The notes beneath the pieces are model-generated. The model worked only from the letters and a program-made list of their open reading frames with translations. It was not told the origin of the DNA and did not search any database. Positions 30,102 to 55,750 of a stretch of 64,000 nucleotides of DNA are shown in pieces; position 1 is the stretch's first letter; every line of letters starts with the position of its first letter. The position numbers were made by a program, and so were the translations under genes. The stretch lies in the IMG/VR virus record IMGVR_UViG_3300042468_000945, positions 32,001 through 96,000 of that record; one strand, written 5' to 3'. The stretch comes from a virus.

Positions 30102-30779
30102 TTAATATTGATACAGATTATTAGTTCTCATTAAATTAATTAATTTAGATGCGTATTCTGTATTTGTACCAGCATATCCAGCTGCCTGTAAAGCTCTAGC
30201 TACGTCATCTGCATTTTGTAATTTACCAATGCCTTGTTTCTTATACCTTGGTCCTGTAAGAAATCTTCCATGATCCATAATACTTTCTTCCCAGTTATGG
30301 TAAACCCTAAAGTTTGCTGTAGTAACAAACTGATTACTACCCGATCCTTCTCTTGTTCTTAAAGCAATTGTACCAGCAGGTCCAGAACCTTTAATACCAA
30401 ACAAGTTATTATATTTAGAAGCTAAATCACTTTTACCCCAACCGCTTTCTTCACACGCTTGTGCAAGTATAACAGCTACAGGAATATTGTATAGTTCAAA
30501 AGTTTTTTTAGCTCCTGGAAGTATTTTATCAATAAAGTCTTTCTTTGTTTTAGGTATGGGATTAGTATTTACAGGAGTGTTGTTATTTGTTGGCCCATTT
30601 GCAGCATTGATTATTTGTTGAAAAGCATTACCTACAGCCTGGAAGTAATTATTTGTTGGACCATATGGGAGTTTACTTTCAAACCCCATATTTGCACGTT
30701 GTTCAAATAAATACCTTTCAAGGAGCTTTTCAAGGTGTGAAGGGTCTTCTGGAATTATACTACTAAAATTTTCATTCAT
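30102..30779 (-). CDS. GH73 glucosaminidase/muramidase (FlgJ-like) with N-terminal tag
   Basis: FIDKILPGA, VILAQACEESGWGKS (catalytic E), NNLFGIKG, FRVYHNWEESIMDH, LQAAGYA...YASKLI. Confidence 0.92.
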   Translation of the reverse strand: MNENFSSIIPEDPSHLEKLLERYLFEQRANMGFESKLPYGPTNNYFQAVGNAFQQIINAANGPTNNNTPVNTNPIPKTKKDFIDKILPGAKKTFELYNIPVAVILAQACEESGWGKSDLASKYNNLFGIKGSGPAGTIALRTREGSGSNQFVTTANFRVYHNWEESIMDHGRFLTGPRYKKQGIGKLQNADDVARALQAAGYAGTNTEYASKLINLMRTNNLYQY

Positions 30780-33700: not shown

Positions 33701-36700
33701 TGAGTTTTTTGTAATCCATCAACAATAGGTTGTTGGAGTTCCCAACCATCACCATCACACTCAACATTAACAAACCCATTACCTACAGGTACATTCAAAA
33801 TCCTACCATTAAATACAACTGGTAATTCAGCTGCATTTGAGTTATAGCCCATCCTTATTTGAATTCTTGCCCCTGGATTTAGAGCAAGCATTTCAAGATG
33901 GTTTTTCTGCCACAATCTAAGAAGATCTTTGTTAGGTGTCTTGGTAATGATATTATCCCAAACCCTTCCAGCAACCACACCTGCACCAACTATTGGGTTA
34001 ATACTTCTCTGGTTTGCGTTAACACTATCAACAGCAATTTTCTGTCTCAAAGCCTCTACCTGAGAGTACCTTGTTAAAGCTGTAAACATATTAGAGAAAG
34101 TTACAAAAGCTTTATGAGACGGGTCTGTTTTAGTTTTAAAGACTTCAATTGAAGATATACCACCTCTTGTGTAGAACTGATCCCATAACTTTAAGTTACC
34201 TTCTGCAAAGTAAAACCCTTCATTAATAATTAGAACTTTAAATGTAGGGTATGCTTGAGCTAATCTTCCCCACAACCCAAATCTACGAACATCAACCATA
34301 GATGAGTATATAGCATTTTCACTGTGGGGGATTATACCAAAATCAACTTTAAGTCTAATAAGTGTAGCTTCTTCGGCAGTTAGATTTACCTGTTCAGCTA
34401 GTCTTGCACCAACAGTTAACCTAGTTACTACTTGTCTTTGATCAGAAATTCTGACTCTTTCTCCGCTTGGGGTTTGATTTGTAGCTATGTTTACTGTGTT
34501 ATTAGCATTATCAACTAAGATGTATGCGTTAAACGGATTAAACATAAGGTCATATTGATCTGTAAATGATGGGTGGATTGCAGAACCAAGAACTCTTGAA
34601 ACTTCAATATACCCAATCCAATAATCATCAATAATAGCTGAGTTGGGTTGTCCAACAGCTTGCATTAATTTCTTAATAGTATTTCTTGCTTGAGTACCAT
34701 ATCTTTCTACTGAAAGATTAGCTGCTGCCCTATTAAGTTCAGCTTCAAACTCTTTATTGAATCCAGTACCTACCCAAAACTTAGATCTACCAATAGAGGT
34801 TAATCTTAGGTGAGTTGCTATTAATGCAATGGTTGCATTATTCTGGTACTTCTTTAAGTAACCAGAATATACAGAACATATAAGTTCAACCTGTGCATTA
34901 AAATCTGGGTTTGCTTTGATTTCTTCTAAGGATAGATTAAAATACCCACCATCACCAACTGCGGCAATTCTATTTAAACCAAACCCTGATCTTCTTAGTA
35001 CAAAACCTCTAATAACGTTTGGATCAATCTTATATTTACTTGCATAATAATCAAATACATATGCTGATTCTAACATTGCTATTGTTGGATCAACACCTGA
35101 TGGACTATAAACATCTGGTTTTTTGTTTTGATTAGCTAAGTAGTAAGCATAATTAGAAGATTGAATTGCTGTTTTCTGATATGTTGATCTCCAATTAAAC
35201 TTGTCATCAAAAGTTGTTTTCTTTATCAGGTCAATTAATGGTTCCCATGTAGGTTCTTTACCTTCTCTTTCTCTTTTCCTAAAGTAACTTAATAAGATTG
35301 GGAATTCTTCTGGAAGAGATTTAAGAGTATCAGAGTTAAGATCATTATAAACAGGTTCGCCAAACAAAATATTGCTTGCCATATCTCTTACTACTTCACC
35401 TGCTTTTTTATACTCTTCACCAAATAGTCCACTTATTCCAGATAATACTGCATTAAAAGCATCAAACACACCATCTAAATAGTCAACACCAGCCGTGGCT
35501 CTAGGCGGAATTGGGACCAGGAAGTGAGACACAAGTGATTCACCTTTTAACTTATAAAGAGATCTTCTCTGTAGACCAAAATCTGCGGCTTCTTTTAATT
35601 TTCTAATTCTCCATGCAAAACTAAAGTAGTCTTTAGCCAGCATTGTATTTTCTAATCTAGCACCAGTAAGCTCATCTTTATTTGTATTTTGGTTAATTAC
35701 ATTCGTAATAAAAGCATTATTACCTGGACCATTTAGGTACTCTTCATTTTCTAATGTGTAGCCTTGTCTGTCATCAGTACCAACAGTTGTAACATTCCAC
35801 CAAGCACCCTCAGTAGAGTTGTACCCTTCATTAGTTTTTTTAAGTAATTGAGTAGCATATTGAACGTTTTCTTTTGGTTCAGAATTATCTATAGCCTTGT
35901 TAATCTGTTTTTCATAATCTTCAACACCACTAGATAAATAATCTTTACTATAGTTTGTATAGATATTAAAGATAGGGTCATACTCTCTATAAGCAATACC
36001 TCTCTTAAAATCGTTGTCGGCAATCGCTTTTGGTCTTAAATCTTTATCAATACCACCAAACTGGGCATCTGCCGCCCTGTCTAATAATGCACCCCACAGA
36101 GAATCAGGGTTGTAACAAATATAAAAATCTGAGTCAGCCCACAGCCCATTATTATATTCACTATAAGAAATCTCTGCTTCTGTACTAGAAATAAATTTTG
36201 CTATTTGCTCTCTTCTTTGTCTAATAGAAAGGAAATCTTCACAGATATCAATAATAGATAGTTCGTACTCAGTAAGGTCTTGAGCAGGTCTACCACTATT
36301 TCTTCTAATAGCTTCTTCTCTAAGAATATCAATCCATGAGTTTAGTTCTCCCTTTGTAGGAAGCCGCATATCTGGAAGTAATTCTTCTCTTGCCAATGAG
36401 TATTGTAGAGAGAAGTATTCGACTGCTTTCTCTACTAAAGGATCAGGTTCGTTTGGTCCAGGTCTTTGGAAGTTAAGTACTCTTCCTTGTTCCTGTAAAG
36501 TTGTTGGTAAGAATTTAATCTTTTCAGCTGCTTGAGCTTTTGGATCAAACTCAGTAAACAATATTTCAAATTCCCAAACATCTGGGAAGCCTTGCATATT
36601 GTTGAAACTAAGGGTTACAGGCATAACAAAATCAACTCCCATTAGTTGGAAGATGTTGTTATTTACCTGTAGGAATGGGATGCTGTCATAGCTTTCTGTG

Positions 36701-38676
36701 ACTCCACCACCATAAGGGGAGTTAGTAACATTAACGCATCTTTGGTCAAAATCTGATTTTATCTTTTCAAGTTGTTTCTTAGCAGAAATACCAATAACTT
36801 TTCCTCTAACAACAAATTCTGAACTACCCGAACCTAGGACTTGGTGAACAGGTAAAGAAGAACCTTCCACATGCGTAGGAACACCACCAAAAGTTCTACT
36901 ACCAGCAATTGATTCAACAATGATATTCTCATCATCAGAGAATCCTGATCTTAGTACCGTCTTACTTGCTTTTTGTGCTTTTTCTATAACATCTAAGTAT
37001 TCAGTTCTTTCAATATTTATAACTTGTTTTCTTTTAACACTCTCAATCTTGAAAATATTATTAACAACAGCCAAAAAACTTGCGTCTACATTATTAACTA
37101 CTTCAATAGCAACAGCAAAGTATTCTTGTGGTGACCTTACGGCATTTCTTTTATCGGTAGCCGTAACAGGGTTATTTGTCTTTTTTGTCGTTTCAATAAG
37201 ATTATCGTAATACTTACCAATAGCAACATCAGGTAGTCCAGCAGATTTAGCAATTGTTAAGAATGGGTATGTTTTTTGGTCTGGGAGTTTATCTGTGTAA
37301 CCTAATACAGTATTAGCCCTGGATGCAATCTTTGAAGCATCTATATTTCCACTATCTGGAAGGTACTTACCTGTATCGTCAACAAAGTTATGTGTCTTAT
37401 ATAAATTCCAATCAGCTAAACCAGCATAACTACTTAACTGTAAAAGTTTACTAAAGTAGTTTCTGTTACTGGTTTTAACCAAGAAGATAGTCTTATTACC
37501 AAGTTCTTTTGATGATATTCGTTTAATATTTGGAGTTGTAATATCATCTCCAAGATTTCCTTCGCCAATACTATTAGATAAGATTCTTCGTAGTGCGTTA
37601 AATGTATTGTACTCACTTAAAAATTCTTCTGGTTTTGAGTTTTTAATATTGTTTTCTATTTGATTTATAGTTAAAGTATCAGGAGTACTAAGAATAAACT
37701 TACCGTTTAAAGCTCTTGAAGACAGTGAATCATAGACTGATCTTCCTCTTGTTTTACCCCACAACTTAACTAATGGCCAACAAGCACCATCATCTAAAGT
37801 TATTTGAAACCCTGTTGATGTGTCTTTATTTTCTGAACTTGGACAGTACCAACTGAACATAAACGGAGACATGTTTATATCAACTGCAATAGAAGAAGGA
37901 AGTTCTGGTACAGTAGAAATTGTTATGTTATTGATAATATGTTCGTGATAAGGAATATCTCCATCACCTGGACGTTCTCCAAATGGACCACCTTGACAAG
38001 AAACAATAGGGTTTAACAGTACTTGTTCAAGAACTTCTTGAACAGAACTACGTATCTCCTCTGTGCCTGTGGAGATATACGAAATATTATATGTTTGGTG
38101 GGAGTAACCAGAACCTCTTTTAATGGTACCTGATTCTCTAAGTGTTTGCTGTTGTTCTAGGTATGTGGTTCTTTGTTCAGACGTATTCTGAATTGGAACA
38201 TCAAAAACAGCATAACCTATTCTTGTTGATGAAGACCCTTGTTTCCTTACACTACCTACAGGTTTAAATCTAACATCTAATGTTGTATCAGGCCAGTCAC
38301 CACCAGAAGATGCTTCAACCTTTTCCTCAACATCAATTGGTTTAGGTTCTTCATGTATAAAAATGTTTGTGTTGGGTTCTCCAACATCAATTTGGTGTAA
38401 TTGTCTACCACTAGGTCTAACCCTTAAGATTACTTTTTGTTTATTAGTCTTAAGCTGTTTACCTATCTCATCAAAAGAAAGTTTAGCAATTCTAGGATTA
38501 TTAACATAAAGAATTCCTATTAAATATCGAAACTCATTATGTTTAAAAGATACGGTCTGATTTCCCTTCTTTGTTGCTAAAACAACTTGAATGTTCTCAT
38601 CACTAATCTTTTTAATTTCAAAGGGAATACCCTCTAAAGATTCCTTATTACTAAGCATTATAGTTTGTTGAAACAT
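30772..38676 (-). CDS. Giant baseplate hub / tail-associated protein (gp27/gpD-like hub domains, degenerate SLT domain, helical C-terminal extension)
   Basis: RIQIRMGY...VVFNGRI..V......VECDGDGWEL and IQGQACIKPNDIVLLND...FVRNVTHIL..ERGFVTMITP are hub-fold motifs. SLT-like segment YASKYKIDPNVIRGFVLRRSGF. 2634 aa. Confidence 0.65.
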   Translation of the reverse strand: MFQQTIMLSNKESLEGIPFEIKKISDENIQVVLATKKGNQTVSFKHNEFRYLIGILYVNNPRIAKLSFDEIGKQLKTNKQKVILRVRPSGRQLHQIDVGEPNTNIFIHEEPKPIDVEEKVEASSGGDWPDTTLDVRFKPVGSVRKQGSSSTRIGYAVFDVPIQNTSEQRTTYLEQQQTLRESGTIKRGSGYSHQTYNISYISTGTEEIRSSVQEVLEQVLLNPIVSCQGGPFGERPGDGDIPYHEHIINNITISTVPELPSSIAVDINMSPFMFSWYCPSSENKDTSTGFQITLDDGACWPLVKLWGKTRGRSVYDSLSSRALNGKFILSTPDTLTINQIENNIKNSKPEEFLSEYNTFNALRRILSNSIGEGNLGDDITTPNIKRISSKELGNKTIFLVKTSNRNYFSKLLQLSSYAGLADWNLYKTHNFVDDTGKYLPDSGNIDASKIASRANTVLGYTDKLPDQKTYPFLTIAKSAGLPDVAIGKYYDNLIETTKKTNNPVTATDKRNAVRSPQEYFAVAIEVVNNVDASFLAVVNNIFKIESVKRKQVINIERTEYLDVIEKAQKASKTVLRSGFSDDENIIVESIAGSRTFGGVPTHVEGSSLPVHQVLGSGSSEFVVRGKVIGISAKKQLEKIKSDFDQRCVNVTNSPYGGGVTESYDSIPFLQVNNNIFQLMGVDFVMPVTLSFNNMQGFPDVWEFEILFTEFDPKAQAAEKIKFLPTTLQEQGRVLNFQRPGPNEPDPLVEKAVEYFSLQYSLAREELLPDMRLPTKGELNSWIDILREEAIRRNSGRPAQDLTEYELSIIDICEDFLSIRQRREQIAKFISSTEAEISYSEYNNGLWADSDFYICYNPDSLWGALLDRAADAQFGGIDKDLRPKAIADNDFKRGIAYREYDPIFNIYTNYSKDYLSSGVEDYEKQINKAIDNSEPKENVQYATQLLKKTNEGYNSTEGAWWNVTTVGTDDRQGYTLENEEYLNGPGNNAFITNVINQNTNKDELTGARLENTMLAKDYFSFAWRIRKLKEAADFGLQRRSLYKLKGESLVSHFLVPIPPRATAGVDYLDGVFDAFNAVLSGISGLFGEEYKKAGEVVRDMASNILFGEPVYNDLNSDTLKSLPEEFPILLSYFRKREREGKEPTWEPLIDLIKKTTFDDKFNWRSTYQKTAIQSSNYAYYLANQNKKPDVYSPSGVDPTIAMLESAYVFDYYASKYKIDPNVIRGFVLRRSGFGLNRIAAVGDGGYFNLSLEEIKANPDFNAQVELICSVYSGYLKKYQNNATIALIATHLRLTSIGRSKFWVGTGFNKEFEAELNRAAANLSVERYGTQARNTIKKLMQAVGQPNSAIIDDYWIGYIEVSRVLGSAIHPSFTDQYDLMFNPFNAYILVDNANNTVNIATNQTPSGERVRISDQRQVVTRLTVGARLAEQVNLTAEEATLIRLKVDFGIIPHSENAIYSSMVDVRRFGLWGRLAQAYPTFKVLIINEGFYFAEGNLKLWDQFYTRGGISSIEVFKTKTDPSHKAFVTFSNMFTALTRYSQVEALRQKIAVDSVNANQRSINPIVGAGVVAGRVWDNIITKTPNKDLLRLWQKNHLEMLALNPGARIQIRMGYNSNAAELPVVFNGRILNVPVGNGFVNVECDGDGWELQQPIVDGLQKTHDGGLGYQSPTGFAGTGTEPAYIIAQTMVPNDIAGNIAGVVTGGRYGKRCVTPHFGDVYYSGLTYHTPELFMNMYGAGKGLMYQQFNWLSEIASKNAIYNWAGTTLISVSVKEPSVWKTANVCRMAVMDFVTAVEPFHTRSTLFFGGWWYPFNYAYDPSILKYQRPPLLENEETTNTKPLLPQVAAYLKATNSKDIVLKVLERNEVEPGFVQGSVLGDLVQYVTLKRADGDIVRARFSVSPKFGPDQINQNPRLVTVSYVTDFKNIENTSDKQAELLKDVNNYTKHLKWKCYTQVWPAITGLNLLSNSISSDASTVFTDATGVNTFNGVASTDHMSRTLTYSVDSDIQPAERKTLLVDTGLYVTAAQKGYYESFKDAVGKFVPVVGDSLQGVPDTPAVENSVLTGLCDTVKTMYSGVFSIQGQACIKPNDIVLLNDTINSLEGPLFVRNVTHILNSERGFVTMITPDCVALPFTSVQGTKLVTALSVGPVNKVGQYMVGRAVTTVVAAYLTKKLYMPFNMRVAELNQALEVLGSSELNTKFYANSLSEIREKLLSEIDLELKKPILLRPFYGAKRRKQLNELKRILNDKSSNNLFDILRRSRDLDLELPALRLASGLQKKVLNIAVESQLYYVDLLKELGAKFEDTLDRDKVIEIADSIVAKRLKDQLKLIEPEIKEEIKNAYELIAKRAEQIKEAETAYNAATTVEGKIVLEKRLNDLLKDVESLNYMIETDLPNDAGRLNDFIKELDTVELLTDRKGLTAQQFTAAQAAGIATADDELKAVVREASNPVRLVERIKIAENALKATGQKVDDFLAAKELGVVFKNEKVAIAASRMKKVIAPSIKAVSWLSPAIVLRAAVEVIRFTVGASIIDYANSTLRARQAVTIIPLRTRDSNGTSLPYVAGIRGHQGCVVGDDLSIFDNFLGGWLGGQHDGLAAKGTTILAALVGIEVPDYGHTQSDTEYLKRIKNIGAKNE

Positions 38677-38678
38677 GG

Positions 38679-39413
38679 CTATCTTTCTATTGTGTGCGTT
38701 CTAAGTCTTACACCAGTATGTACTTGTCTTGGATCGTTTTCTGGATATGATCCTGGGCTATCTTTTCTTTCCGTCTTCTCTCCAGCTGAGTTATCAACAA
38801 CATTTTGTATGAGTGTCCTAGTTGAAGCATCTGCTTTTCTTAAACCAACTGTTGCTCTAAGTGTTGCACTATGAGCAAAAGGGACTACACCTACTTCTAA
38901 CAACCTAGGAATGGTTTCTTCAGAAAGGAAGTTTTTCAAGTATGGTGCTTTCTTGAGAACGGTTTCATAGGTAGAGTCAATTGAGTTTACAAATTCACTT
39001 TTACCCTTACTAACTAATAGAGTACGAAGTTTGTTAAATAAATCTTTCTGAGTGCTTTTAGCATACTTATATGATGCAAATCCAGCTAAAACAGTTAAAC
39101 CTTGAATACCAACTGCTGTGATTGGATCATAACCTTTCTTCCTATCAGCAACAACACCAGCACTCATCTGGGCACCCATAAAAAACATGGACCTAAACCC
39201 TTCTGAGTTTATTTTTCTGTTAGTAGCTGAAAAAGCATATGCCGCAACACCAGAGAATATTCCAATTTTCCTGGTTCGATCTACGTCTTCTTGGTCAGAC
39301 TCGGGCAACCCAAAACTTCTTGCTATAGACTTATCGTTAGATAACGATACGGCTGAAAGCAAAGCCATACCTACAATACCAGTAGCTGTAGATATTTTAT
39401 TGTTAATTGACAT
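38679..39413 (-). CDS. Predicted membrane protein (3-4 hydrophobic helices)
   Basis: Hydrophobic segments ATGIVGMALLSAVSL, IGIFSGVAAYAF, MFFMGAQMSAGVVA and ITAVGIQGLTVLAGFASY. Confidence 0.6.
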   Translation of the reverse strand: MSINNKISTATGIVGMALLSAVSLSNDKSIARSFGLPESDQEDVDRTRKIGIFSGVAAYAFSATNRKINSEGFRSMFFMGAQMSAGVVADRKKGYDPITAVGIQGLTVLAGFASYKYAKSTQKDLFNKLRTLLVSKGKSEFVNSIDSTYETVLKKAPYLKNFLSEETIPRLLEVGVVPFAHSATLRATVGLRKADASTRTLIQNVVDNSAGEKTERKDSPGSYPENDPRQVHTGVRLRTHTIER

Positions 39414-42400
39414 TATCTTATGTCTGCCATCATTTGCTCATAAGCAGCTAGACGTACAGGTAGTCCTTGAGTCGTATTTTCATCTTTAGTCATGTTTCCA
39501 TTAGAATACTTATTAACAATATGACTAACCTTTTCTTCTAATGCTCTTTGTTGGTATTTATTATTAACAAAAGTTTTCATATCAAGATTTAATTGGAAAG
39601 GTTGTGTCCCACCTGTAAATACTCTTGCTGGTGTAGGGTCACCTGGAATTTCTGATTGAGCACCAATAACTCCAGGAGAATTTTTAGACGCATTACCACC
39701 AGAATACTTTTCTTCTGGATTCTTATTTGCCATAAGTAGTGTGGTCAATCCACCAACTAACAGTAACGCACCTACAATCTTTTTATTCTTACCAACATCA
39801 AACATGTCAGTACCAAGAATACCTTCGTGTTGTGCCTTAATTGCCTCTCTAAAAACAGTATCTGAATGTTCATTTGCAGTTGCAGCTGTTGTTGCAACTT
39901 TTTGTGCGGCTTCATTCATGGTTACAGTAGTTTTTTCAGCGGCAGATTGTCTAACTGTAAACCTTGCAGCAACTTCATTCAAGTTTCGCATAAGATTACC
40001 AGGTTCGGAGCTTCTTATTGTTTCTGCCTGTTGCTTAATATACTCAGTAGCTATTCGTTGTTGGGTATGTTTGTTAGCCCCCTCTTTATGTAGTTGATGC
40101 ATTAGTTGCTCTGCTTCAGAAAATACATTATCTAATAAAGGGGTTCTTTCGCCTAATCCAGAAATAGTTTCACCAGCTTCCCTTTCCATATCAGCAACAG
40201 CTTGTTGACTTATTTTAGGTATAAGATCTCCAAGACCTTCGTTGTACTTCCTTTGGAACATCCTTACAGTCATGTTCTTATCTACAGCATAAGCTCCTGT
40301 TATAAAATCTTTTAATGCTAGGTCAGCCCTCTCCGCCCCCATAAAAGATTTTTCTAGTGCTTCAGTAAGATTTTTTTGAATTTGTTTAACTGTATCTAAT
40401 TCATGCTCATCAGCTAACGTATGTAGTTCATTTATTCTCGTTGCAATAACCCCTTGTACACGTTTTTTGTAAGATGAGCTTTTTAGTTTATTAACTACTG
40501 ATGGGGTGGTAATTTCATCTATAGGAGTATCAAGAGCCATGTCACGAGCTTGTAGATTATTTCTTGCACCTACGTCGTTAAATAATTTAGTGATTTCATT
40601 TTTATTTCCAGTTCTTCCTGAATCCATAAAAGTATCATGTACTGCTGATCTTCTTACATATGCTTCAAAATCTTCTGGAGTTGTGTTATCAGTAATTGAT
40701 AGTTTAGGTCCACTAAAACCTCCACTAGTGTCACGACTATGTATATTTAAATATGGTTGACTTAAAATTTCTCCTGGCCTTTCCAAAGACATGACATCCT
40801 TTACCATTAGCATTGCTTGTCTTAGCTTATCAGTATCCCCATCCATACCATCCCTTATTAGCCTACCTATTGTTTGTCCAAAGTCTGACTCCATAGCAGG
40901 TGTTAATTCTTGTGTGTACATTTCTCTGTAGGACTGGTCTGTGAGTGCTTCACGTAATCGTAATCTTAAAGAACTTGTAAATGAAGCAGCATTATCTGGG
41001 TTTCCAGGTATGTAAGCCCTATCAACAAGAGTATCAATAGCTTTTGTTAAACTTAAACCTTTTCCAATTCTTGCATCAAAATCGTCAAGAACTTCAGGAG
41101 TTAACAGTTTATTAACTTCTTGTGAGACCACAAATTCATGGAAACCAAACAACTGATCTGTCATTTGGGATGTTACATTACTTTTTTGGTATTTTGTTTT
41201 ATTGAAGAAGTTTAAATCATTTATAATTCTATGTGCATCACTATGTGCTACAGTCTTTGTGGACACATTGATATCCTTAACAGCCTCAGCAGATAATCTA
41301 TCATCTTCTACGGTGTAAGATTTAAACTTCCTAAACCTCAACCCTAAAGAGTTTGCACCAGTACCAGTTAGATTTGAATACTCTCCTGTTTCAACAAATG
41401 TACCATCAGGTTGGATGATAAGGTTTTCCATAACAGCCACCATACCTTTACCACCAACTTCATCAGTTTCAAATGCTTTTAGTTTATAGGCTCCTCTTAA
41501 TGATGTCCCACCATCACTAGGGTTATAATAAATGGTAGAATTATTTGTATCAGCCATACCTTTAAAGCTAATATTTTCTAACCCTAATTCATCTCTAATT
41601 CTAAACTTCTGGTCAACTGCATCCATGCCACCTCTTATTTCTTTTTCATTTAAAAGTCTTCTGGATGCTTCCCTAACGCTTGCATTACCTATATCAAATT
41701 TTCCACTTGCTTGAGTTAATACAAGTAGATCATAGTTCTTCTTTGCCCTGGTTGCTTCAAAAATTCTCTCAATTTTTTGTATTGCCAGATCACCACTTAT
41801 ACTTTCGCCTTGAAACTCCACAATTTCTTTTGCTAGGTTAGGTCTTTTAGCTATAACTCTAATTCTGTCTAAAATCTCTTCAAAGTGGTAACTCCATTGC
41901 GTACCCACAAATTGAGCTTTTTCAAAACTTTCAGCAACTCTAAGAAGTGCATTAAGCTCATCGCCACCATTAAAATCAACTATGCTCTTTACTCCATCAA
42001 TATCTTTATAACCAAGCCCCATTCTTTCAATAACTGTTCTAGTACCAGCTTTCCCATTTTTTGGATCATGAGCAACTTGTTTCATAGATACATCAAATAT
42101 AAGACTACCTTCTCCAAGCATCTGACTAGCTTCTAATCCTCTTCGTAGGTGCTCTTGCACAGGTCCCAAAGAGTCTGTACCAAGTAACCTAATTGGTTTA
42201 TTACCAGTTGATTCTTCTAACATAGCAAAACCAAGCCTACTCTGATTTCTAACTCTCATGTAGTCAGCATTTGTTTCTACTGGTTTAGCATCAATATATT
42301 GAGGTGTTGCTTGCTTTGCTTGTAGTTGTAAAGGTTTAAACTTTATGGTTTCAATGTCAAAGTCACTAATAGATGCTCCTTCTGGTAATTCACCAAAAGT

Positions 42401-44131
42401 AAGCTTATTTAGCTTTCCTCTTTTTTGAAGTTCTTTTACCTCATCTAATTGTGTATAATCATAAAACTTTCTAGTTCTATTTTCTTCGTCATATCCCATA
42501 ATAACGCTTTTTTCTGTAAGATATGATTCGGGGCTCATTTCTGGGTGCATATTTAAAGAGAATTCTACTACTGGATTATCAACATATTGTCCAGCTTGAG
42601 TAAGAGTTTCTTTGTTGTTTTTTCTTAGTATGTTGTGTTTAAGTTTTAAAGTTGATACCTCATCTAAAGTTAATTTAGCTTCAATTTCTTTGTGTTCTTT
42701 AAGTAAATCCTCTAACTCAACTTCAGTTGAATCAGATAGTTTTCTTAGTGTTAATGCTGATATGTTTATAGAACTACTATTAGGTAGTTGAGAATTTAAA
42801 ATTTTTCCTAAAGCCTTGTCTTGTAAAGTTATTGTACTTTTGTTATATTTTAAAGTCTTGCCTTCTAAGATATCTGTAAACAATGTCTTCTTATCAATGG
42901 AGAACATTCTTTGCTCTCCATTAGGAAACACTTCAGCTGGGTTTGCAAGTACATAGTTTGCTTTAAGTTGATCTAAGGAATATCTTTTAGTGCTCTTATT
43001 TCTGTGTCTTGCTTGTGCCGCAGTTCTTCTGTTACGAAGTTTTTTAAATCTTAGTTTATCAACGTTCTTAGCTCTGTAATCTAAATAAGCACTTTCAAAC
43101 AACTCATTTGCGCCTGATGATGTCATTCTACCCTTTTCTGCATCTTTAAGTGCATCATCAAAATTATATTTACCTGTTGAGCTTGCTCTGTCTAACATTG
43201 AACCTAATAATGGTTTGTACCCATTCTTAGAATTATTAAATAACCCAGCTGTTACTTTTTGACCAGGAATCCCACCCCACGCTATTGTAGCTAAATATTG
43301 AGCCCTTTTTGATATAGCAGTACCCTTGCCAGGTTCCTGTCCAATCTTTTTTAAAAATTCTGGAATATATTTGTCGTTATCACCTAACCATTTGAACCTT
43401 ATTTCATTTAGAAAATCATTATCTCTTGACATTGCAAATTTAGGTGTTTCTAGTCCCTTCTTTCTACCAAAAGAGGATGGACCCCTATTTTTTACCCTGC
43501 TTTTAAATTCATCTTGACTAAGTATACCTTCAAATTTTGGAGGAATAAACTTCTTTGGCCTAAGATAATTCATTTTAGAAGATGATTTCATCTTCTCAGT
43601 TAAATCTCTTGCAACATCTTCCAAGTACTCCTCAGAATAAAATTCTTGATTTTCGCCTAAAGAACTGCGAATAATTTCAAGAACTTCTTGTTCTGACATA
43701 TTGTGCTTAGAACTCTCTACAAGATTAGTAGCTATGCCTAAGAGCTTTTCTTGTAGGGTCTTATCATCAGTATCGTTGATGATAGAAAGCATAGCCCGAA
43801 AGACTGCTCCTTCTTCTGTTTCAATTTTAGATAAAATCTCTTGGTTGCCTTTTAAGACTCTTGAATGTAGATCAGCCCTATCTTTTAACACCTCCTCTGG
43901 TGTAAGCTCCTCTATGTTCTTTCTAACGGCTTGCATACCAATATCTTCAAGGTCTTTGCCTTTGTATTGGTCTAGGTAACCATCACTAGCTCTTAAAAGG
44001 TAATATAACAATCCTCCACCAGCTGATAAGGTAACAATATTTTGTACCACATAATCAGTTTTTGTCTTTTTATCCCTAACCGTATCACCTGGACTAGTTG
44101 GGGAATTCTGGAGTTTGTCTGTTCTACTCAC
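39413..44131 (-). CDS. Large helical virion/ejection-type protein with possible degenerate DEDD exonuclease domain and C-terminal TM segment
   Basis: 1572 aa, GTG start. LIFDVSM / FVGTQWSYHFEEIL / YDLLVL resemble Exo I/II motifs. IVGALLLVGGLTTLLMA near the C-terminus. Confidence 0.55.
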   Translation of the reverse strand: MSRTDKLQNSPTSPGDTVRDKKTKTDYVVQNIVTLSAGGGLLYYLLRASDGYLDQYKGKDLEDIGMQAVRKNIEELTPEEVLKDRADLHSRVLKGNQEILSKIETEEGAVFRAMLSIINDTDDKTLQEKLLGIATNLVESSKHNMSEQEVLEIIRSSLGENQEFYSEEYLEDVARDLTEKMKSSSKMNYLRPKKFIPPKFEGILSQDEFKSRVKNRGPSSFGRKKGLETPKFAMSRDNDFLNEIRFKWLGDNDKYIPEFLKKIGQEPGKGTAISKRAQYLATIAWGGIPGQKVTAGLFNNSKNGYKPLLGSMLDRASSTGKYNFDDALKDAEKGRMTSSGANELFESAYLDYRAKNVDKLRFKKLRNRRTAAQARHRNKSTKRYSLDQLKANYVLANPAEVFPNGEQRMFSIDKKTLFTDILEGKTLKYNKSTITLQDKALGKILNSQLPNSSSINISALTLRKLSDSTEVELEDLLKEHKEIEAKLTLDEVSTLKLKHNILRKNNKETLTQAGQYVDNPVVEFSLNMHPEMSPESYLTEKSVIMGYDEENRTRKFYDYTQLDEVKELQKRGKLNKLTFGELPEGASISDFDIETIKFKPLQLQAKQATPQYIDAKPVETNADYMRVRNQSRLGFAMLEESTGNKPIRLLGTDSLGPVQEHLRRGLEASQMLGEGSLIFDVSMKQVAHDPKNGKAGTRTVIERMGLGYKDIDGVKSIVDFNGGDELNALLRVAESFEKAQFVGTQWSYHFEEILDRIRVIAKRPNLAKEIVEFQGESISGDLAIQKIERIFEATRAKKNYDLLVLTQASGKFDIGNASVREASRRLLNEKEIRGGMDAVDQKFRIRDELGLENISFKGMADTNNSTIYYNPSDGGTSLRGAYKLKAFETDEVGGKGMVAVMENLIIQPDGTFVETGEYSNLTGTGANSLGLRFRKFKSYTVEDDRLSAEAVKDINVSTKTVAHSDAHRIINDLNFFNKTKYQKSNVTSQMTDQLFGFHEFVVSQEVNKLLTPEVLDDFDARIGKGLSLTKAIDTLVDRAYIPGNPDNAASFTSSLRLRLREALTDQSYREMYTQELTPAMESDFGQTIGRLIRDGMDGDTDKLRQAMLMVKDVMSLERPGEILSQPYLNIHSRDTSGGFSGPKLSITDNTTPEDFEAYVRRSAVHDTFMDSGRTGNKNEITKLFNDVGARNNLQARDMALDTPIDEITTPSVVNKLKSSSYKKRVQGVIATRINELHTLADEHELDTVKQIQKNLTEALEKSFMGAERADLALKDFITGAYAVDKNMTVRMFQRKYNEGLGDLIPKISQQAVADMEREAGETISGLGERTPLLDNVFSEAEQLMHQLHKEGANKHTQQRIATEYIKQQAETIRSSEPGNLMRNLNEVAARFTVRQSAAEKTTVTMNEAAQKVATTAATANEHSDTVFREAIKAQHEGILGTDMFDVGKNKKIVGALLLVGGLTTLLMANKNPEEKYSGGNASKNSPGVIGAQSEIPGDPTPARVFTGGTQPFQLNLDMKTFVNNKYQQRALEEKVSHIVNKYSNGNMTKDENTTQGLPVRLAAYEQMMADIR

Positions 44132-45607: not shown

Positions 45608-48600
45608 TTATTGTTGTAGTCGAGACCTAGTACGCTCTTTTTCTGCTTCTATCTCTGAAGATATATCAGAAAAAACGTTTAGGTTAATATTTATTACGTT
45701 TTTTTCGGTGGGAAATTGACTATAATTTACAATTATTTTACCAAATTCGCCAGATGAGGCTAATTTTCCGATTTCTCTCTCTATATTATTCCTTGATCTT
45801 CGGTTCATTCTTGGTACTTCTATATCTCTAGTGTACGCCTTTGCCTTTTCAAGCTTCTTTCTGCTCGGCCTTGCAATCTTAATTCCTTCCAATTCGCTTG
45901 CCCTTGTCTTAATATCCTCAAGGTCAACGTCTCTCTTCCAGCCTTGCCAATCTGCCCCAGGCAAAGCATGGTCTCTAAAGTATTCTTTTAGTGTTGGCTT
46001 ATCAGGAACATCATCAACATCTTTACCTAAGAACTTACCTAGAACCCTTTTTTGCGCTCTTGGAAGCAACCTATAAAATTCTTCTTTCTCCCTATCAGTT
46101 CCAGTAGTGACAATTGATTCAGCTATCTGTCTCTGTCTTTTAGGAATGGCATCTAAAGCTTCTTGTAAGGTACCTGACACAACATCAAACCCATACATAG
46201 TTCTCCGAGCTTTAAACTCAGCATCAGTAGCCAAAGAATTAAACTGAGACTCTTGCATGGTAGCAGATAGTTCGTCTACACCCTCTTTCTTCCTTGCCGC
46301 ATTAGATATGGATGCTTCTTTTATAAAGGTCAGAGTATCATAATACTCATCAAACTCAGCACGATCTTTATATCGTTTAGGTGTCCAAGTATCTCCACTT
46401 ACAGCCTCACCTATGTTCCTAATAATGGAAAGACTAGCCCCAACAACAGCAGCAACCTTTGCTACTTTCAACCTAGATTGTCTTGTTCGTGCAAAAATAG
46501 ACGCAGCAAGTGCTGACTGAATACCTGCTGTAATAGGGTCTTTACTTATGATTGAGTTAATTGTTGGTGTGACATAGTTATCTTTAATGTCTCTCAAAGA
46601 GTAGTCATCAGTACCATAAACTTCTCCTCTCTTAAACTGTTCAAGTCCTGTCCTCACGCGCAGATATTTATTTGACACCATATTATCGCTGTGTGTTATG
46701 TATTCTGTAATGGATGACATAAAACCAGTTCTACCTATGACCCGATTTGCTAGTGGGTTTCTAGATTTGTAATCACTATCAGCATAATCGGACTTAATTA
46801 ATTCTCTATTAACATCCTCAATGATTGCGTCTAATACAGTATGCTTCATTAATTCAGGATTGAATTGACCTTGAATTAATGTGAGGTTTGCCTTTTTACC
46901 AACACTCAGACCATACTTCTTATAAACATCTTCAGGATTTTGGTAAGTAAACGCTTGAGGGTCAAAATCAACTCCAGCCAGTTTGACAATACCTCGGTCT
47001 GTAATAATATTACCAGTATCTGTAAACCCTTCAATAGTTACTGCTTGAGTCTCTAATCTAACATTTCTCTTAGGGTACAAGTTATACATTTCTGATTTTC
47101 TTCTTGCAATTTCTTTTGCAATTTCAAATCTTCTTGCTTCCATACCACCAAACGCACCAGAATCTTCTGCTCTTTGTAAATATCTTCGATACTCACTTGA
47201 TTCTGGAGCCACTTTTGCTAAGACTTCAATTCTTTCAAGCAACCCATAAGTTTCATAGGGACTTACAACACCCTCTTCAATAAGATTTTTAACTCTGTTT
47301 CTTGCTCTTTCAACCTTCTCAAAAATCTCTTGCATACGATGTGGGTCGTATTCATAGCTTTTAATTCTGACTTCAGATGGGTTATCCCTATTAACGTGAG
47401 CAATATGTCCTACCTTTGTTTTTGTAAGGTACATGTAGTACATAAGTTGGTCTTCATATTTTGAGACATCCTCATTAATATTTTCAGTACCCCTAGTCTT
47501 AATTTCAACTACTTCTAACCCACTTTTACCTCTAACCAATGTTTCAATTGTTGCACTACCATTCACAGACTCATCATATGCGGCAATTTCTGCACCAACA
47601 AGAATACCTTGTTGATTCATTTGTTGCATGATAATTTTATGGGCGGCACTTCCGAACTCCATAATATTCTGGAGTTGTTCTGCTTGTTCTACACCAACAG
47701 GGTCAAGGAAAGACTTAACCATCTCATCCTCAGACAAACCAATAGAAGAACCTCTTATTTTTAATGGTCGTACAAATGGGTTTGCTCTTTCATAAGCATC
47801 ACCAGGCATTACAAGTTCTCCGTCTGAGACTCTGGCATATGGGTCCCCAGTCCGGAACTTGGAAGGCATCCATCCTGGCATTGAGTTAGGTAAGGGGTTA
47901 AATGCGTCTGGGTCTTGTCTTGGCTCGTCAATAAATCGTCTAAAGAATTCACCAAACATCCCAGTCCCTTTTTCACCAAACTTAGCTGAGTAAAGAAGTC
48001 TATTAGTAGAAAAAGCTTTATCAGGGTCTTGAATCTGGAAGGCATGCTCTTCTGGATAGAAAGGAAGTTGTCTTGCCACCCCACTATAAATACCCATAGG
48101 TGTAATAGTGTGGTGAACCATCTTTTCATACACTTCACTTAAAGCATTGTGGTGGTAATTTTCCTCTTCATAGTGTTTATTGTAACCATACTTGTAGACC
48201 CTATTATCACCATAAGACCCACCTTCTCCACCGCCGCCCCCGCCTGAACCGTGTCCACCACCTGAACCACCTCCGCCAGAGCCTTTACCTATTCCGAAAC
48301 CTCTAAAAATTCCACCTTCATCAGTAGAACCACCCACTCCTGCATTATCTAAAAAGTCTTCCACAGGTTCCTGACCTTTATAACTAGATAAAACTGCTTG
48401 TAGATAGTTACCCGAATTTTTTGATGCGTAACCTTCTTGACTCTTTTCTAAGTAGTCAAACATTTCTTCTTTGGAAGCGTATGGTCTGTCTTTAGCTGTT
48501 AAGTCTTGTTGCCAGTCTCTGTTAAACAACCTGAAAAGAGGTGCAAAAGGATTAGTAAGAGTTGGTAGGTAACTATAGTTCGGATTTGATAGTTGAACGT

Positions 48601-51600
48601 TATCTGCTTCAGTCCAGTGAGATTTCCATCTTCGATAAGCATTTGGTCTTGCAGATTCAACAGCACCACCGTATAATGGGTTTCTGTTACCAACACTAAA
48701 TAACCTACCTGTTCTTACAAACTCGTTACCATAAAGAATATCTTCTCTTGTCTCTTCTTCAGATAATGGATTTAGATAATTATCTAATCCAGGAACACCA
48801 TATACTAAATTTTTAAGTGGATCTGTTAGACCAAAATTATCTCTAAGTCTTGCACTATTTATTCTTGTATTCGCATATATGTTTGCACTGTAATCATCAA
48901 TACCTTCAAGATCTTTTTCGTGCATATCTGCATTAAAGTTTCTATAAAGCTCACCTGCAACTATAACAGGTAAAATCCTTTTTGCGTATAAAGCAGCGTG
49001 TGTTTTTGCAAAGGTAGTCGTGTCTCTTGAGGCAAGTCCTAAACCAGCATCTTCTAAAACCTTAACCGCACCATGAGATAAAGCAGTAAAAGCTGTACCA
49101 AAATAGCCCTGAGCTTCACTATTATATACCAAGCCTTTTCCAGCACTCAACATACCAAAACCTCTTTTAGCTTGTTCTGCCATCATCTGAAGCATGCTTT
49201 CTTTACTTCCAGTTAACATGGAACCAAGAGAAGGAAAATTAGATGGTAATACAGTATACCTGGAGAATACCTCTTCAGGGACTGTTGGTGGTTCTACTCC
49301 ACGTTGAAAAATATTTTTATCGTAATAATCAAAAACCCCTAGGTTATTTGCTAGTTGTTGAGTTGCATTAACAGCCCTATCCTCAGTTTGGGTATAAGCT
49401 GAGAGTAGTAGTGAATCACTCCTATGTTTTTCTAAGCTAATTAACCTAGCTATGGGGTCTTCAATTAAACTATCTATACCTTGTTTTGATGCTAAACCAC
49501 TTGCAATTGACCTTCCAACAGATGGAATATATTCCTCTGCCGCAGTATTAGAAAAAGCTGTGTCAGCAAGATTAGCAAGATTTTGTACTCCAGCACCCAA
49601 ATAACTTTCAAAAAACTTAACAGACTCTGGATTTGCTGAGAGGGGGTCTCTAATGTCTCTTAAAAGTCCTTCTAATGTAGTAAAACCAGTCTTGGAACCT
49701 GCAAGTGCATCTTCAATTTCTTTTACACCTATGTTAACGCTTGCTTCTTCAACTAGTCCTCTTTGTATGTTCTTTTGTAGATATGATAAACTATTTTCAC
49801 CTAATAAAGTATCCTCAACCTTTTCTTTGAAACCACCTTTTGTGGCTTTTGAAACGTCTCCAAGTCTCTCACTATCAGAAACATAGTCTGCCAGAGCTTT
49901 AGATAGTGTGGCACCATACTGGGAGTTAGTCCTTGATTCTAAATCTGACCCCCTTAAAAAAGCACCAAGCTTATCAGTATCACCTGCAACTTCAGCTAAT
50001 TGAACTAAGAAGTCGTCACCATCAAATACTTTTGCTTTGCTTATTGCAGCAATTGCAGTATTAAGATCATTGTAAGAATCTGGCGTAACAGTAGCACCTA
50101 ATCTTCTTTGCAAGTCTTGAGCAATAGCCGTAGGGATTTTACCCTCATTTTCTTTTAAGAAACCTGCAACAAGTTTTGGGTGAAGTTGATCAGAAGTGAC
50201 ATTACTAGGATCACCACCAAAAAACCTAGTTATTATGTCTGACCCTACACCACCTAAGTTTCTAGGTTTGGCTTTTAGTTTTCCATCTTCTACAAGTAAA
50301 GTAAAGAGTTCAGGTTGAGCATTATAAGCTGCTCTCTCTACTTTAGTCATATTCTTAGACTCTCTTTGGAAGAAGAAATTAGCTGCACCTTTTATGTTGC
50401 CTTTTTCATCCATGTCTGAAAGAAGGTCTTTAAATAAATTATCATCAACAATGTCTGATCTTGCCCTAGACATGTTTTGCAGAATCTCGCTTCTTTCATT
50501 GTCTAAGTAAGTGAATCTTCTTGCATCGCCTAGATTAAGTTTTTCTAAAACAAATGAATCAGTTTCTTTTAAGTGGTTAACTTTAATAATATCGCTACCA
50601 ATGCCAATACCAAAATCATTTTCACCAAAAGAACCACCCATTCTTTTTAGTTCACCAAGTTTGTTTAAGAATCCAAGATTCTTAATAGGTGTATTATCTG
50701 GCTCTAAAAACTTACCAATGGTTGTAGGAATATTAAAAGTAAAAGGCAGTAATGGAATTTGTCCACCTTTTCTAACAGAACTTGCAACCTTTCTTCTCAT
50801 ATTTCTTGCATGAGATAGTGAGACTACTTGACCATCTCCACTCATTGCAAGACCAGTAAAAGTATTATCTACTAATGTGTTTACATCATTTATAATATTA
50901 GCTGGGACGTTAGGTATTAACGTATCATCTTTACCTTTAGAGTATAAAAGCTCCTCTAAACCTTTTCTTGCTCTGGCTGATACAATATCAACGGTATCGT
51001 CGCTACCTACATTTTTAAGGTACGTTTCAACTGCTGCTTTGTGAGTACCTTCTACATCTTTTAAGGTTAGAAGTTTGTGTGATTTCGTTAAACCTAAAAG
51101 GTCTAGGGTTTTAGTCTCAACAGATTGAGTTTCGTTTAGGTGTCGTTTAATTGAATCAAATAACACATCAGCATTTTTTGCTCCATTAACTCCCTGAAAT
51201 ATTGTACTGGTTCTAATGTCTGGAGTCTCTTTGATAGCCTTCTTCATAGACTCTTGAACCATTTTTCTTTGTTTTTCTAGTATTTCTTCCTGTCCAGTAA
51301 CGCCCCTAACTGTCTTAAATTGAATTCCAGGAGTGGCTTCTTGGAATCTTTTCATGTGGGTATCTTGTAAAAGACCGTCAGCAATCTTAGAATAATTACC
51401 ATCCATAAAGGAATCAAAAACTTCAGCTACTGCATGTTTCTGAGTATCAAAAGCTTCACGACTTGAATCCTCTACGTTTTCCCTCATAGCATTAAGGAAG
51501 GTAGTTCTCCTCTCAGCTTTTAAAGCACTACTTAAAAAAGACCTTCTAATTCTTGGTACACTATCAGCCATGAAGTTAAAAGAGTCTGAGAAGAGTATTT

Positions 51601-51796
51601 TACTGTCTTGAACACCAGCTATTGCCCCAATATATTTTCTTAGAGTGGTTCCTTGACCAGCTAATTGAGACGCAACACTTTTACTAATATAAGGAACAGA
51701 ACCAAGAGCGACAGCAGCCACACCTGCAAACTTTGCAAATGCTGAAACTTTATCAATAAAAGTTTCTTTCTCTTTGTGAAAATCTGATCCTATCAT
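45608..51796 (-). CDS. Tape-measure-like giant tail protein with PD-(D/E)XK nuclease-like and SNase-like domains
   Basis: 2062 aa, largely helical with hydrophobic patches, directly after the tube and chaperone genes. FGSAAH..E..TIET..VEIKT..QLMYY at about 47290-47662. IVKLAGVD...VNRELIKSDYA at about 46770-47050. Confidence 0.65.
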   Translation of the reverse strand: MIGSDFHKEKETFIDKVSAFAKFAGVAAVALGSVPYISKSVASQLAGQGTTLRKYIGAIAGVQDSKILFSDSFNFMADSVPRIRRSFLSSALKAERRTTFLNAMRENVEDSSREAFDTQKHAVAEVFDSFMDGNYSKIADGLLQDTHMKRFQEATPGIQFKTVRGVTGQEEILEKQRKMVQESMKKAIKETPDIRTSTIFQGVNGAKNADVLFDSIKRHLNETQSVETKTLDLLGLTKSHKLLTLKDVEGTHKAAVETYLKNVGSDDTVDIVSARARKGLEELLYSKGKDDTLIPNVPANIINDVNTLVDNTFTGLAMSGDGQVVSLSHARNMRRKVASSVRKGGQIPLLPFTFNIPTTIGKFLEPDNTPIKNLGFLNKLGELKRMGGSFGENDFGIGIGSDIIKVNHLKETDSFVLEKLNLGDARRFTYLDNERSEILQNMSRARSDIVDDNLFKDLLSDMDEKGNIKGAANFFFQRESKNMTKVERAAYNAQPELFTLLVEDGKLKAKPRNLGGVGSDIITRFFGGDPSNVTSDQLHPKLVAGFLKENEGKIPTAIAQDLQRRLGATVTPDSYNDLNTAIAAISKAKVFDGDDFLVQLAEVAGDTDKLGAFLRGSDLESRTNSQYGATLSKALADYVSDSERLGDVSKATKGGFKEKVEDTLLGENSLSYLQKNIQRGLVEEASVNIGVKEIEDALAGSKTGFTTLEGLLRDIRDPLSANPESVKFFESYLGAGVQNLANLADTAFSNTAAEEYIPSVGRSIASGLASKQGIDSLIEDPIARLISLEKHRSDSLLLSAYTQTEDRAVNATQQLANNLGVFDYYDKNIFQRGVEPPTVPEEVFSRYTVLPSNFPSLGSMLTGSKESMLQMMAEQAKRGFGMLSAGKGLVYNSEAQGYFGTAFTALSHGAVKVLEDAGLGLASRDTTTFAKTHAALYAKRILPVIVAGELYRNFNADMHEKDLEGIDDYSANIYANTRINSARLRDNFGLTDPLKNLVYGVPGLDNYLNPLSEEETREDILYGNEFVRTGRLFSVGNRNPLYGGAVESARPNAYRRWKSHWTEADNVQLSNPNYSYLPTLTNPFAPLFRLFNRDWQQDLTAKDRPYASKEEMFDYLEKSQEGYASKNSGNYLQAVLSSYKGQEPVEDFLDNAGVGGSTDEGGIFRGFGIGKGSGGGGSGGGHGSGGGGGGEGGSYGDNRVYKYGYNKHYEEENYHHNALSEVYEKMVHHTITPMGIYSGVARQLPFYPEEHAFQIQDPDKAFSTNRLLYSAKFGEKGTGMFGEFFRRFIDEPRQDPDAFNPLPNSMPGWMPSKFRTGDPYARVSDGELVMPGDAYERANPFVRPLKIRGSSIGLSEDEMVKSFLDPVGVEQAEQLQNIMEFGSAAHKIIMQQMNQQGILVGAEIAAYDESVNGSATIETLVRGKSGLEVVEIKTRGTENINEDVSKYEDQLMYYMYLTKTKVGHIAHVNRDNPSEVRIKSYEYDPHRMQEIFEKVERARNRVKNLIEEGVVSPYETYGLLERIEVLAKVAPESSEYRRYLQRAEDSGAFGGMEARRFEIAKEIARRKSEMYNLYPKRNVRLETQAVTIEGFTDTGNIITDRGIVKLAGVDFDPQAFTYQNPEDVYKKYGLSVGKKANLTLIQGQFNPELMKHTVLDAIIEDVNRELIKSDYADSDYKSRNPLANRVIGRTGFMSSITEYITHSDNMVSNKYLRVRTGLEQFKRGEVYGTDDYSLRDIKDNYVTPTINSIISKDPITAGIQSALAASIFARTRQSRLKVAKVAAVVGASLSIIRNIGEAVSGDTWTPKRYKDRAEFDEYYDTLTFIKEASISNAARKKEGVDELSATMQESQFNSLATDAEFKARRTMYGFDVVSGTLQEALDAIPKRQRQIAESIVTTGTDREKEEFYRLLPRAQKRVLGKFLGKDVDDVPDKPTLKEYFRDHALPGADWQGWKRDVDLEDIKTRASELEGIKIARPSRKKLEKAKAYTRDIEVPRMNRRSRNNIEREIGKLASSGEFGKIIVNYSQFPTEKNVININLNVFSDISSEIEAEKERTRSRLQQ

Positions 51797-54035: not shown

Positions 54036-54037
54036 GT

Positions 54038-55696: not shown

Positions 55697-55712
55697 ACAA
55701 ATTCAAATAGTA

Positions 55713-55736: not shown

Positions 55737-55750
55737 ATTTTGTTTAACTA

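Follow-up and report, generated by a model that had tools for sequence, protein, structure and literature searches.

Introduction

Tape measure proteins with embedded enzyme domains have been described in phage T5 (pb2), in mycobacteriophages (Rpf or peptidase motifs) and in phiIPLA35 (a muramidase) (cited in PMC8570332 and PMC4870245), and a survey of polyvalent proteins has defined giant, multidomain proteins that are encoded among virion genes, are predicted to be co-injected with the DNA and carry swappable enzymatic modules (Iyer et al., 2017; PMC5512222). In the lineage of the jumbo myophage 0305phi8-36, a staphylococcal nuclease (SNase) domain was noted on the hub of prophage BtI1, and the tape-measure role in 0305phi8-36 was tentatively assigned to gp146, judged on tail length (Hardies et al., 2007; PMC2147016). 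The GenBank record of gp145 from the same phage (YP_001429636) names it a 'virion structural protein' and adds that it was 'identified as virion protein by mass spectrometry'. Here, we describe P0001, a homologue of gp145, and the nuclease-fold domains that it carries. P0001 is encoded in a 64,000-nucleotide stretch (hereafter the window) that spans positions 32,001 to 96,000 of the IMG/VR virus record IMGVR_UViG_3300042468_000945, a linear record of 118,098 bp with ~35% G+C that is ~66% complete according to CheckV.

The gene for P0001 occupies 45608..51796 on the minus strand and its translation comprises 2,062 amino acids (aa). When cultured phages were searched by tblastn, matches were obtained solely in the 0305phi8-36 group of jumbo myophages, the best being ORF145 of Bacillus phage 0305phi8-36, to which residues 913-1972 are 26.6% identical (E 3e-32; collinear pieces reach E 9e-44). 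The two are true homologues, collinear over residues 913-2050 at ~26% identity, and both genes follow a two-gene tail chaperone and precede a second giant gene and a gp27-like hub. Furthermore, gp145 carries a PD-(D/E)XK cassette at the same site (residues ~1055-1290 of gp145) and, behind it, an SNase-like domain; it differs from P0001 in having the canonical Asp in motif II and in ~70 aa inserted between motifs II and III. Judged by sequence, P0001 belongs to the gp145 family of giant virion proteins, and the phage that encodes it is a jumbo myophage related to 0305phi8-36. P0001 shares with the BtI1 hub the presence of a nuclease-fold domain on a tail part within this lineage. The two domains of gp145 were neither annotated nor discussed in the literature that we searched and, to our knowledge, have not been before.

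Results

The nuclease domain of P0001

Residues 1340-1510 of P0001 (47267..47779, minus strand) fold as a PD-(D/E)XK nuclease and belong to the Cas4/lambda-exonuclease/RecB clade, which confirms an earlier note, made from the letters of the window, that had read a domain of RecB/AddB/Cas4 type and a second, SNase-like domain at 46770-47662. All the peptide strings on which that reading was built are in frame in the P0001 gene, where the coordinates translate to residues 1379-1676 and begin with MEFGSAAHKII. Residues 1363-1513 matched PHROG 1706 (Cas4-like; E 5.9e-10) and PHROG 434 (RecE-like recombination exonuclease; E 6.6e-10), and a profile built from 30 homologues aligned with Cas4 SSO0001 (4ic1) at E 4.4e-7 over motifs II-IV, with the pattern E..G.iDa..(E/D)IKT..QL..Y. 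A single-sequence phmmer search of residues 1340-1700 against PDB sequences gave chance matches only (enterotoxin B chain, E 0.12).

The fold was further supported by structure prediction. An AlphaFold2 model of the first domain, based on a 27-row alignment, reached a mean pLDDT of 83.5, and the alpha-beta-beta-beta-alpha-beta core is present in it, as indicated by the model itself and by its VIA and Foldseek matches. With Foldseek, which the earlier note had suggested as a check and which returned the expected fold for both domains, the first model retrieved lambda exonuclease, MGME1, Cas4, RecE, Exo5 and AdnAB (E down to 1.4e-6). VIA-align of model residues 1-171 gave a Z score of 14.4 with 4ic1 (151 residues aligned, rmsd 3.0; model residues 4-162), followed by the phage-related exonuclease 3k93 (Z 13.9), lambda exonuclease (Z 13.6) and RecE (Z 9.9). 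P0001 resembles Cas4, lambda exonuclease, RecE, MGME1 and the AddB-type enzymes (PF12705) in its core fold (Z 10-14.4) and in having the His of motif I, the acid of motif II, (D/E)xK and QhxxY. Unlike these enzymes, it lacks iron-sulphur (Fe-S) cysteines, its nuclease is a cassette in a 2,062-aa virion protein instead of being free-standing, and in the window's clade motif II has Glu in place of Asp. Lambda exonuclease is a toroidal trimer.

The absence of Fe-S cysteines, which had been read from the domain, extends to the whole of P0001: its translation contains no cysteine over all 2,062 aa and the protein thus has no Fe-S cluster. Assignment to Cas4 in the strict sense was rejected, given that the four-cysteine Fe-S cluster is missing and that the gene lies in a phage tail module and not among CRISPR-cas genes. 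As a side observation, the other giant protein encoded between the tail chaperones and the hub (1,572 aa, 39413-44131) is cysteine-free as well.

The catalytic motif block (47435..47653, minus strand) was placed by alignment and consists of G1382..H1386 (motif I), E1403, E1418 (motif II), E1431-I-K1433 (motif III) and Q1450..Y1454 (motif IV). An exhaustive HMMER search with residues 1340-1700 as query recovered a family of 284 clusters (50% identity) at E<=1e-3, nearly all of them ~2,000 aa in length and matching at ~1,300-1,700. Conservation of the catalytic residues was followed in the 150 homologue clusters that cover the first domain, and the complete set (motif I His, beta-1 Glu, motif II acid, (D/E)xK, Gln and Tyr) was found in 144 of them, that is, in 96% and down to ~25% identity; at the same 50% level, the nuclease module is present in at least 144 protein clusters. 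Position by position, the His is retained in 146, the beta-1 Glu in 144, each of the two D/E positions in all 150, and the Lys, the Gln and the Tyr in 146 each. For the acid of motif II, 140 homologues have Asp and 10, which belong to the window's clade with E1418 in P0001, have Glu; the Asp-to-Glu exchange noticed earlier in the window is a feature of this small group. At motif III the acid is Glu in 86 and Asp in 64. Swaps between Asp and Glu are confined to these two acidic positions. Since the catalytic residues are retained and Asp and Glu replace one another only at the acids, the pattern argues for selection on catalysis and not on the fold alone, and the nuclease domain of P0001 is probably active.

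A further feature that we count in favour of an active nuclease is an intein-like insertion of ~340 aa, located exactly between the G and the S of motif I in four clusters (P0021, P0028, P0029 and P0033; loci L006 and L007/L008), because inteins favour functionally critical sites. The insertion runs from FG/CVD.ETEILT to VFYTGN/S..H, the slashes marking its borders, and thus has Cys at position 1, a terminal Asn and Ser at +1; Gly replaces the usual penultimate His, and Pfam detects no intein at this site. One of the four proteins, P0021, has additional LAGLIDADG and intein domains elsewhere in its sequence.

The SNase-like domain

The second domain read in the earlier note also stood up, with support coming from structure prediction and from distant homologues, as the window's own segment gave no Pfam SNase match, including in a six-frame search of the record, and no SNase chain of the PDB was retrieved by sequence with the 30-homologue profile. 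Residues 1572-1705 were modelled separately (pLDDT 84.8, pTM 0.75). The top matches listed by Foldseek were staphylococcal nuclease chains and one SND1 (Tudor-SN) chain (best E 6.8e-3, prob 1.0, TM ~0.53). In a VIA search, which is independent of Foldseek, the top 15 matches were all SN-like, with Tudor-SN 3bdl at Z 9.5, 2wac at 8.9 and 4qmg at 7.7; SNase 1sta was matched at Z 7.6 (112 residues aligned, 19% identity) and generic OB folds stayed at Z <4. Pfam SNase was matched by the distant homologues P0129 (E 2.8e-4, 21.8 bits, with a cut-off of 21), P0142 (E 6e-4, 20.7 bits) and P0070 (E 0.03, 15.1 bits).

The resulting SNase-like OB domain comprises residues 1581-1690 (46727..47056, minus strand). 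It has in common with SNase (PF00565) and Tudor-SN the OB-type fold (Z 7.6-9.5), ~19% identity to SNase and the sequence pattern V..V.D..T / RLAGV / N..L...G.A, and it differs from SNase in that the Ca2+ ligands and catalytic residues are absent. By hand alignment to the SNase numbering, the equivalent of D40 is K, R, E, D, N or another residue, the equivalent of E43 is variable and the R87 position is without Arg, and the equivalent of the Ca2+ ligand D21 is likewise absent across the family; the R35-equivalent position alone stays basic (98 of 117 homologues). The erosion of catalytic residues perceived in the window applies to the family. Because the SNase catalytic residues are missing throughout, residues 1581-1690 are, as modelled, an SNase-fold pseudo-enzyme that most resembles the binding-type SN domains of Tudor-SN, and the domain probably acts as a binding module in the way those do. 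In ~41 of 158 homologues (e.g. L011 3728-12022), the nuclease and the helical linker behind it are present and the profile alignment ends before the SNase-like segment; the second module may also be replaceable.

These properties bear on the question of whether the two domains cut DNA at all. They could form a non-catalytic DNA grip or structural module that binds DNA or a virion part, for example as a pilot holding the leading end or as a plug of the tube, and such a role would be in line with the pseudo-enzyme character of the SNase-like domain, with its best structural matches being the non-catalytic SN domains of Tudor-SN and extended Tudor proteins, with the conserved basic residue at the R35-equivalent position, and with six clusters that keep the PD-(D/E)XK fold despite a destroyed catalytic set. 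What speaks against it is the selection for catalysis visible in the first domain, where nearly all clusters keep every catalytic residue, and we regard a purely non-catalytic module as improbable.

Distribution of the cassette

A conserved scaffold makes up the C-terminal third of P0001; in sequence order it consists of a GDPY/LPGxAYE element, a linker with the sequence ILADVAP, the catalytically dead SNase-like OB domain, the hydrophobic Gly/Ala-rich hairpin and, last, a C-terminal domain. The nuclease (~170-190 aa) is placed between the GDPY/LPGxAYE element and the ILADVAP linker. The linker is helical according to DSSP of the model (residues 1511-1580, SPYETYGLLERIEVLAKVAPES...; 47057..47266, minus strand). 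It occurs irrespective of the cassette and forms part of the scaffold, its ILADVAP element being conserved in relatives without the nuclease. Many homologues from the additional loci match the domain profile only from position ~176 onward. In these cassette-less proteins, the ...GDPY...RLPGEAYE.L..LHPDETGR element is directly joined to ...YGAFDKFKILADVAP..., meaning that the nuclease is gone and both flanks are kept. Among cultured phages, vB_BceM_WH1 (gp096), KLEB27-3 and Moorella MTATph1 lack precisely the cassette, as do ~16 viral contigs. These comparisons show the nuclease to be a discrete and dispensable cassette; its clean absence from cultured as well as uncultured relatives suggests a dispensable payload and not a part of the delivery machine.

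Gain and loss were followed on a maximum-likelihood tree (30 rows, LG+C20) computed from the C-terminal scaffold that all rows share; its midpoint root is a drawing convention only. Cassette-bearing proteins are found on several deep branches and are paraphyletic, while the cassette-less proteins form two derived groups. The tree needs at least two cassette changes, a number as low as this being obtained in 0 of 500 shuffles, and on the midpoint-rooted tree this suggests that the cassette is old and was lost at least twice.

The cassette junction also attracts other insertions. At or near this point, two ORFs replace the single gp145-type gene in L023/L024 (4610-11842), where the splitting element is an ORF of a 300-aa LAGLIDADG endonuclease (Pfam E 1.5e-6), and in L051 (Bacillus phage KLEB27-3; 951-8104), where it is a 211-aa ORF without a family. 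By sequence features, these ORFs look like intron or free-standing homing-endonuclease insertions, and since both of the gene-splitting insertions fall at or near the junction, this site appears to be a hot spot for mobile DNA. One could then ask if the nuclease itself is selfish, i.e. a homing-type, in-frame cassette that cuts cassette-less alleles at co-infection and brings no benefit to the phage. The mobile insertions at the junction, the intein-like insertions in the nuclease and its patchy presence are what such an element would leave behind. However, the cassette has diverged along with the scaffold over deep branches and looks ancestral with losses, not recently spread; enzymes of the Cas4/lambda-exonuclease type are end-dependent and not site-specific; and the cassette is not spliced out but stays in the mature protein. 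A selfish origin of this kind is consequently very improbable.

Genomic setting and the tape-measure position

In the 0305phi8-36 record, the gene order is sheath, tube paralogues, two "tail chaperonin" genes (gp143 and gp144), gp145, gp146 ("hypothetical tape measure protein") and the giant hub gp147. The window has the same arrangement on its minus strand: two genes in tail-chaperone position, 51796-52482 and 52512-53198, lie directly upstream of the P0001 gene and correspond by position to gp143 and gp144; a second giant gene of 1,572 aa (39413..44131) has, by synteny, the place of gp146, which Hardies et al. named as tape-measure candidate; and a giant baseplate hub gene of 2,634 aa (30772..38676) is homologous to gp147 (tblastn to the gp147 region, E 3e-22). 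Matches to 0305phi8-36 extend to the window's sheath gene and to its tube paralogues. We extended the comparison to 24 IMG/VR-derived viral loci with homologues of the P0001 family, and the order sheath, three tube paralogues, two chaperones, P0001 homologue, second giant and hub was found in 24 of 24 related viral contigs. A further locus scan added four new contigs; as it reused the peptide pattern of the first scan, it is not independent of the nuclease region. That P0001 is associated with the virion is supported by its homology to gp145, a virion protein identified by mass spectrometry, and by the strict synteny of the two loci.

The earlier note had called the protein tape-measure-like. 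As to gene position this was right, the P0001 gene being immediately downstream of the tail assembly chaperone pair. The identity has less support, as the role has been given, tentatively, to gp146 in 0305phi8-36 and P0001 matches no tape-measure family in Pfam or PHROGs. The label is accordingly only positional, and tape-measure identity is unproven. The modelled part of P0001 (residues 1340-1705) is globular. In the 24 loci, the P0001 family is near-constant in length (1,939-2,090 aa without inteins) compared to 1,473 to 2,349 aa for the second giant protein. In L002-L025 the latter comes in two length classes: members from the window's clade measure 1,473-1,716 aa and those from the 0305phi8-36-like clade 2,174-2,349 aa, with gp146 of 0305phi8-36 itself at 2,537 aa; these classes bear on which of the two giants is the tail ruler. 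The 1,572-aa protein of the window gave no family match and nothing usable from the ESM Atlas.

Two observations concern the neighbouring genes. The three tail-tube paralogues stand in a row (53202-56554, minus strand, in the window; 7958-11989 in L001). PHROG 9206 and the RefSeq product line both name them 'major head protein', in conflict with notes in the record itself, which speak of tail tube; we consider the former name a labelling error that automatic annotation would propagate. Secondly, a calcineurin-like metallophosphoesterase gene (44444-45598, minus strand; Pfam E 3e-7, PHROG 221 E 1.4e-12) lies between the two giant tail genes and has a weak match to the DNA-repair exonuclease PHROG 7339. 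Homologues occupy the same place in L002-L006 and L010, all of which are cassette-bearing, and are absent from L007-L009 and from every cassette-less locus.

Such a neighbour may be taken to favour a role for the nuclease in handling the ends of the phage's own genome. Phage genomes of the 0305phi8-36 type have long terminal repeats, and the injected nuclease could resect the 5' ends of the incoming linear genome, leading to annealing, circularization or concatemers; in a variant of this explanation, the protein occupies the ends and shields them from host RecBCD/AddAB, with the OB domain holding the single strand. The closest structural relatives of the domain, i.e. lambda exonuclease, 3k93 and RecE, are end-resecting recombination exonucleases, the match to PHROG 434 points the same way, a tail-lumen protein is the first protein near the leading DNA end, and the metallophosphoesterase with its weak exonuclease match is next door in part of the cassette-bearing clade. 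On the other hand, relatives have the same virion module without the cassette, so end processing by the cassette is no general requirement. It should also be noted that the C-terminal part of tape measures is known to leave the tail first; if P0001 has a tape-measure-like orientation, the nuclease, located in the C-terminal third, would be far from the DNA end. Taken together, we consider end handling unlikely, although less so than a non-catalytic grip.

Other parts of P0001

Outside the domains described above, P0001 has an N-terminal hydrophobic segment (residues 13-37; 51686..51760, minus strand; Kyte-Doolittle peak 1.53) and, at residues 900-1110 (48467..49099, minus strand), the most conserved block of the family, with dense invariant columns; this block was without a match in Pfam, and the ESM Atlas (residues 880-1130) gave nothing usable. 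A Gly-rich hinge is evident from the translation and from Gly-rich columns of the family consensus at ~residues 1160-1200 (48197..48319, minus strand); the earlier note was right that a hinge exists, while the coordinates that it gave, about 48225-48290, were approximate and out of frame. Downstream of the SNase-like domain, a pair of moderately hydrophobic Gly/Ala-rich segments at ~residues 1755-1800 (46397..46534, minus strand; Kyte-Doolittle peak 1.44) may be a membrane-inserting hairpin, and the equivalent segment of gp145 is more hydrophobic than that of P0001. In the remaining ~1,600 residues no domain was recognized by Pfam or the ESM Atlas; an ESM Atlas lead to LPD38 (0.87) was weak and under the trust level, and a metallopeptidase processing domain was not found in P0001.

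Discussion

Our analysis suggests that phages of this kind probably carry a DNA-cutting enzyme into the cell inside the virus particle. More specifically, we propose, and give even chances to, the view that the P0001 cassette is an accessory injected DNA-end nuclease effector and not a part of the delivery machine. P0001 would be stored in or at the tail lumen, would be expelled by contraction of the sheath and would anchor at the membrane via the Gly/Ala-rich hairpin at ~1755-1800, whereby an active, Mg2+/Mn2+-dependent DNA-end nuclease would be presented in the cell before any phage gene expression. The activity of the cassette could be that of a 5'-to-3' exonuclease or of a single-stranded DNA endonuclease, and the dead SNase/OB domain may help to bind nucleic acid. 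The likeliest targets would be host, plasmid or competitor DNA, or DNA intermediates of host defence. The accessory nature is suggested by relatives that infect without the cassette. As for the earlier note's proposal of a virion-delivered module, the association with the virion is supported by gp145 homology, synteny and the mass spectrometry remark, whereas an indispensable pilot or genome-end role is not: the absence of the cassette from several cultured and many uncultured relatives argues against it, and for an accessory payload.

A number of points weigh against an injected, active effector. The Pfam family PDDEXK_1 (PF12705) matched the window protein at E 7.8e-4 and 19.9 bits, which is below the 22-bit cut-off. 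Six clusters (P0044, P0053, P0133, P0137, P0138 and P0143) keep the domain and have lost the catalytic Lys and other motif residues; they look like natural pseudo-nuclease versions, and because of them it appears that a PD-(D/E)XK domain can persist without catalysis. We infer nuclease activity from fold and residue conservation, and transfer the virion location of P0001 from a homologue of 26% identity; tail-lumen location, ejection and membrane insertion are further deductions, and the hydrophobicity of the putative hairpin is modest (1.4-1.5). No mechanism is visible that would keep a virion-borne active nuclease off the phage's own DNA. Lastly, Cas4/lambda-exonuclease enzymes act on DNA ends, which is at least as compatible with a processing role at the ends of the phage's own genome as with an attack on the host. 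On balance, host or competitor DNA appears somewhat more likely as a target than the phage's own ends.

The accessory effector that we favour can be compared with two groups of described proteins. Like the enzyme-bearing tape measures, P0001 is very long, is encoded next to tail chaperones, has a hydrophobic segment and contains an embedded enzyme that would act at the time of entry; it differs in that the known domains attack the cell wall and not nucleic acid, and in that the tape-measure identity of P0001 is, as discussed, uncertain. With regard to the polyvalent proteins, which combine several enzymatic or effector domains, P0001 would have one probably active enzyme domain and one pseudo-enzyme. 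The survey covers head-packaged proteins in MuF/portal contexts, and its text contains none of the terms 'tape measure', 'Cas4', 'SNase' or '0305phi8-36' (PMC5512222). Because relatives infect without the cassette, we regard it as an injected accessory effector, in line with the concept of Iyer et al. (PMC5512222).

In literature searches we found no published description of a nuclease domain in a gp145-type, tape-measure-position or tail protein. What appears to be new, from the comparison of homologues, is the nuclease as a discrete cassette, together with cultured examples that are without it and a tree. A broader view would be that a tail-lumen protein in tape-measure position is the vehicle for an active nuclease of the Cas4/lambda-exonuclease type, which enters ahead of the genome as a weapon or as an end-processing tool and which is ancient in the 0305phi8-36 lineage and was lost at least twice; we put this forward tentatively, at somewhat less than even chances. 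As the enzymes known on tail-lumen and tape measure proteins attack the cell wall, an active DNA nuclease at this place, if true, would add attack on or processing of nucleic acid before phage gene expression.

The finding may be useful for experimental studies, since a direct comparison is possible in cultured phages of Bacillus and Moorella, between 0305phi8-36, which has the cassette, and the closely related vB_BceM_WH1, KLEB27-3 and MTATph1, which are cassette-less. Apart from this, it is relevant to the survival of jumbo phages in the first seconds of infection, in the face of restriction, RecBCD/AddAB and nucleases acting at injection, and to the ways in which they take over the host or compete for it.

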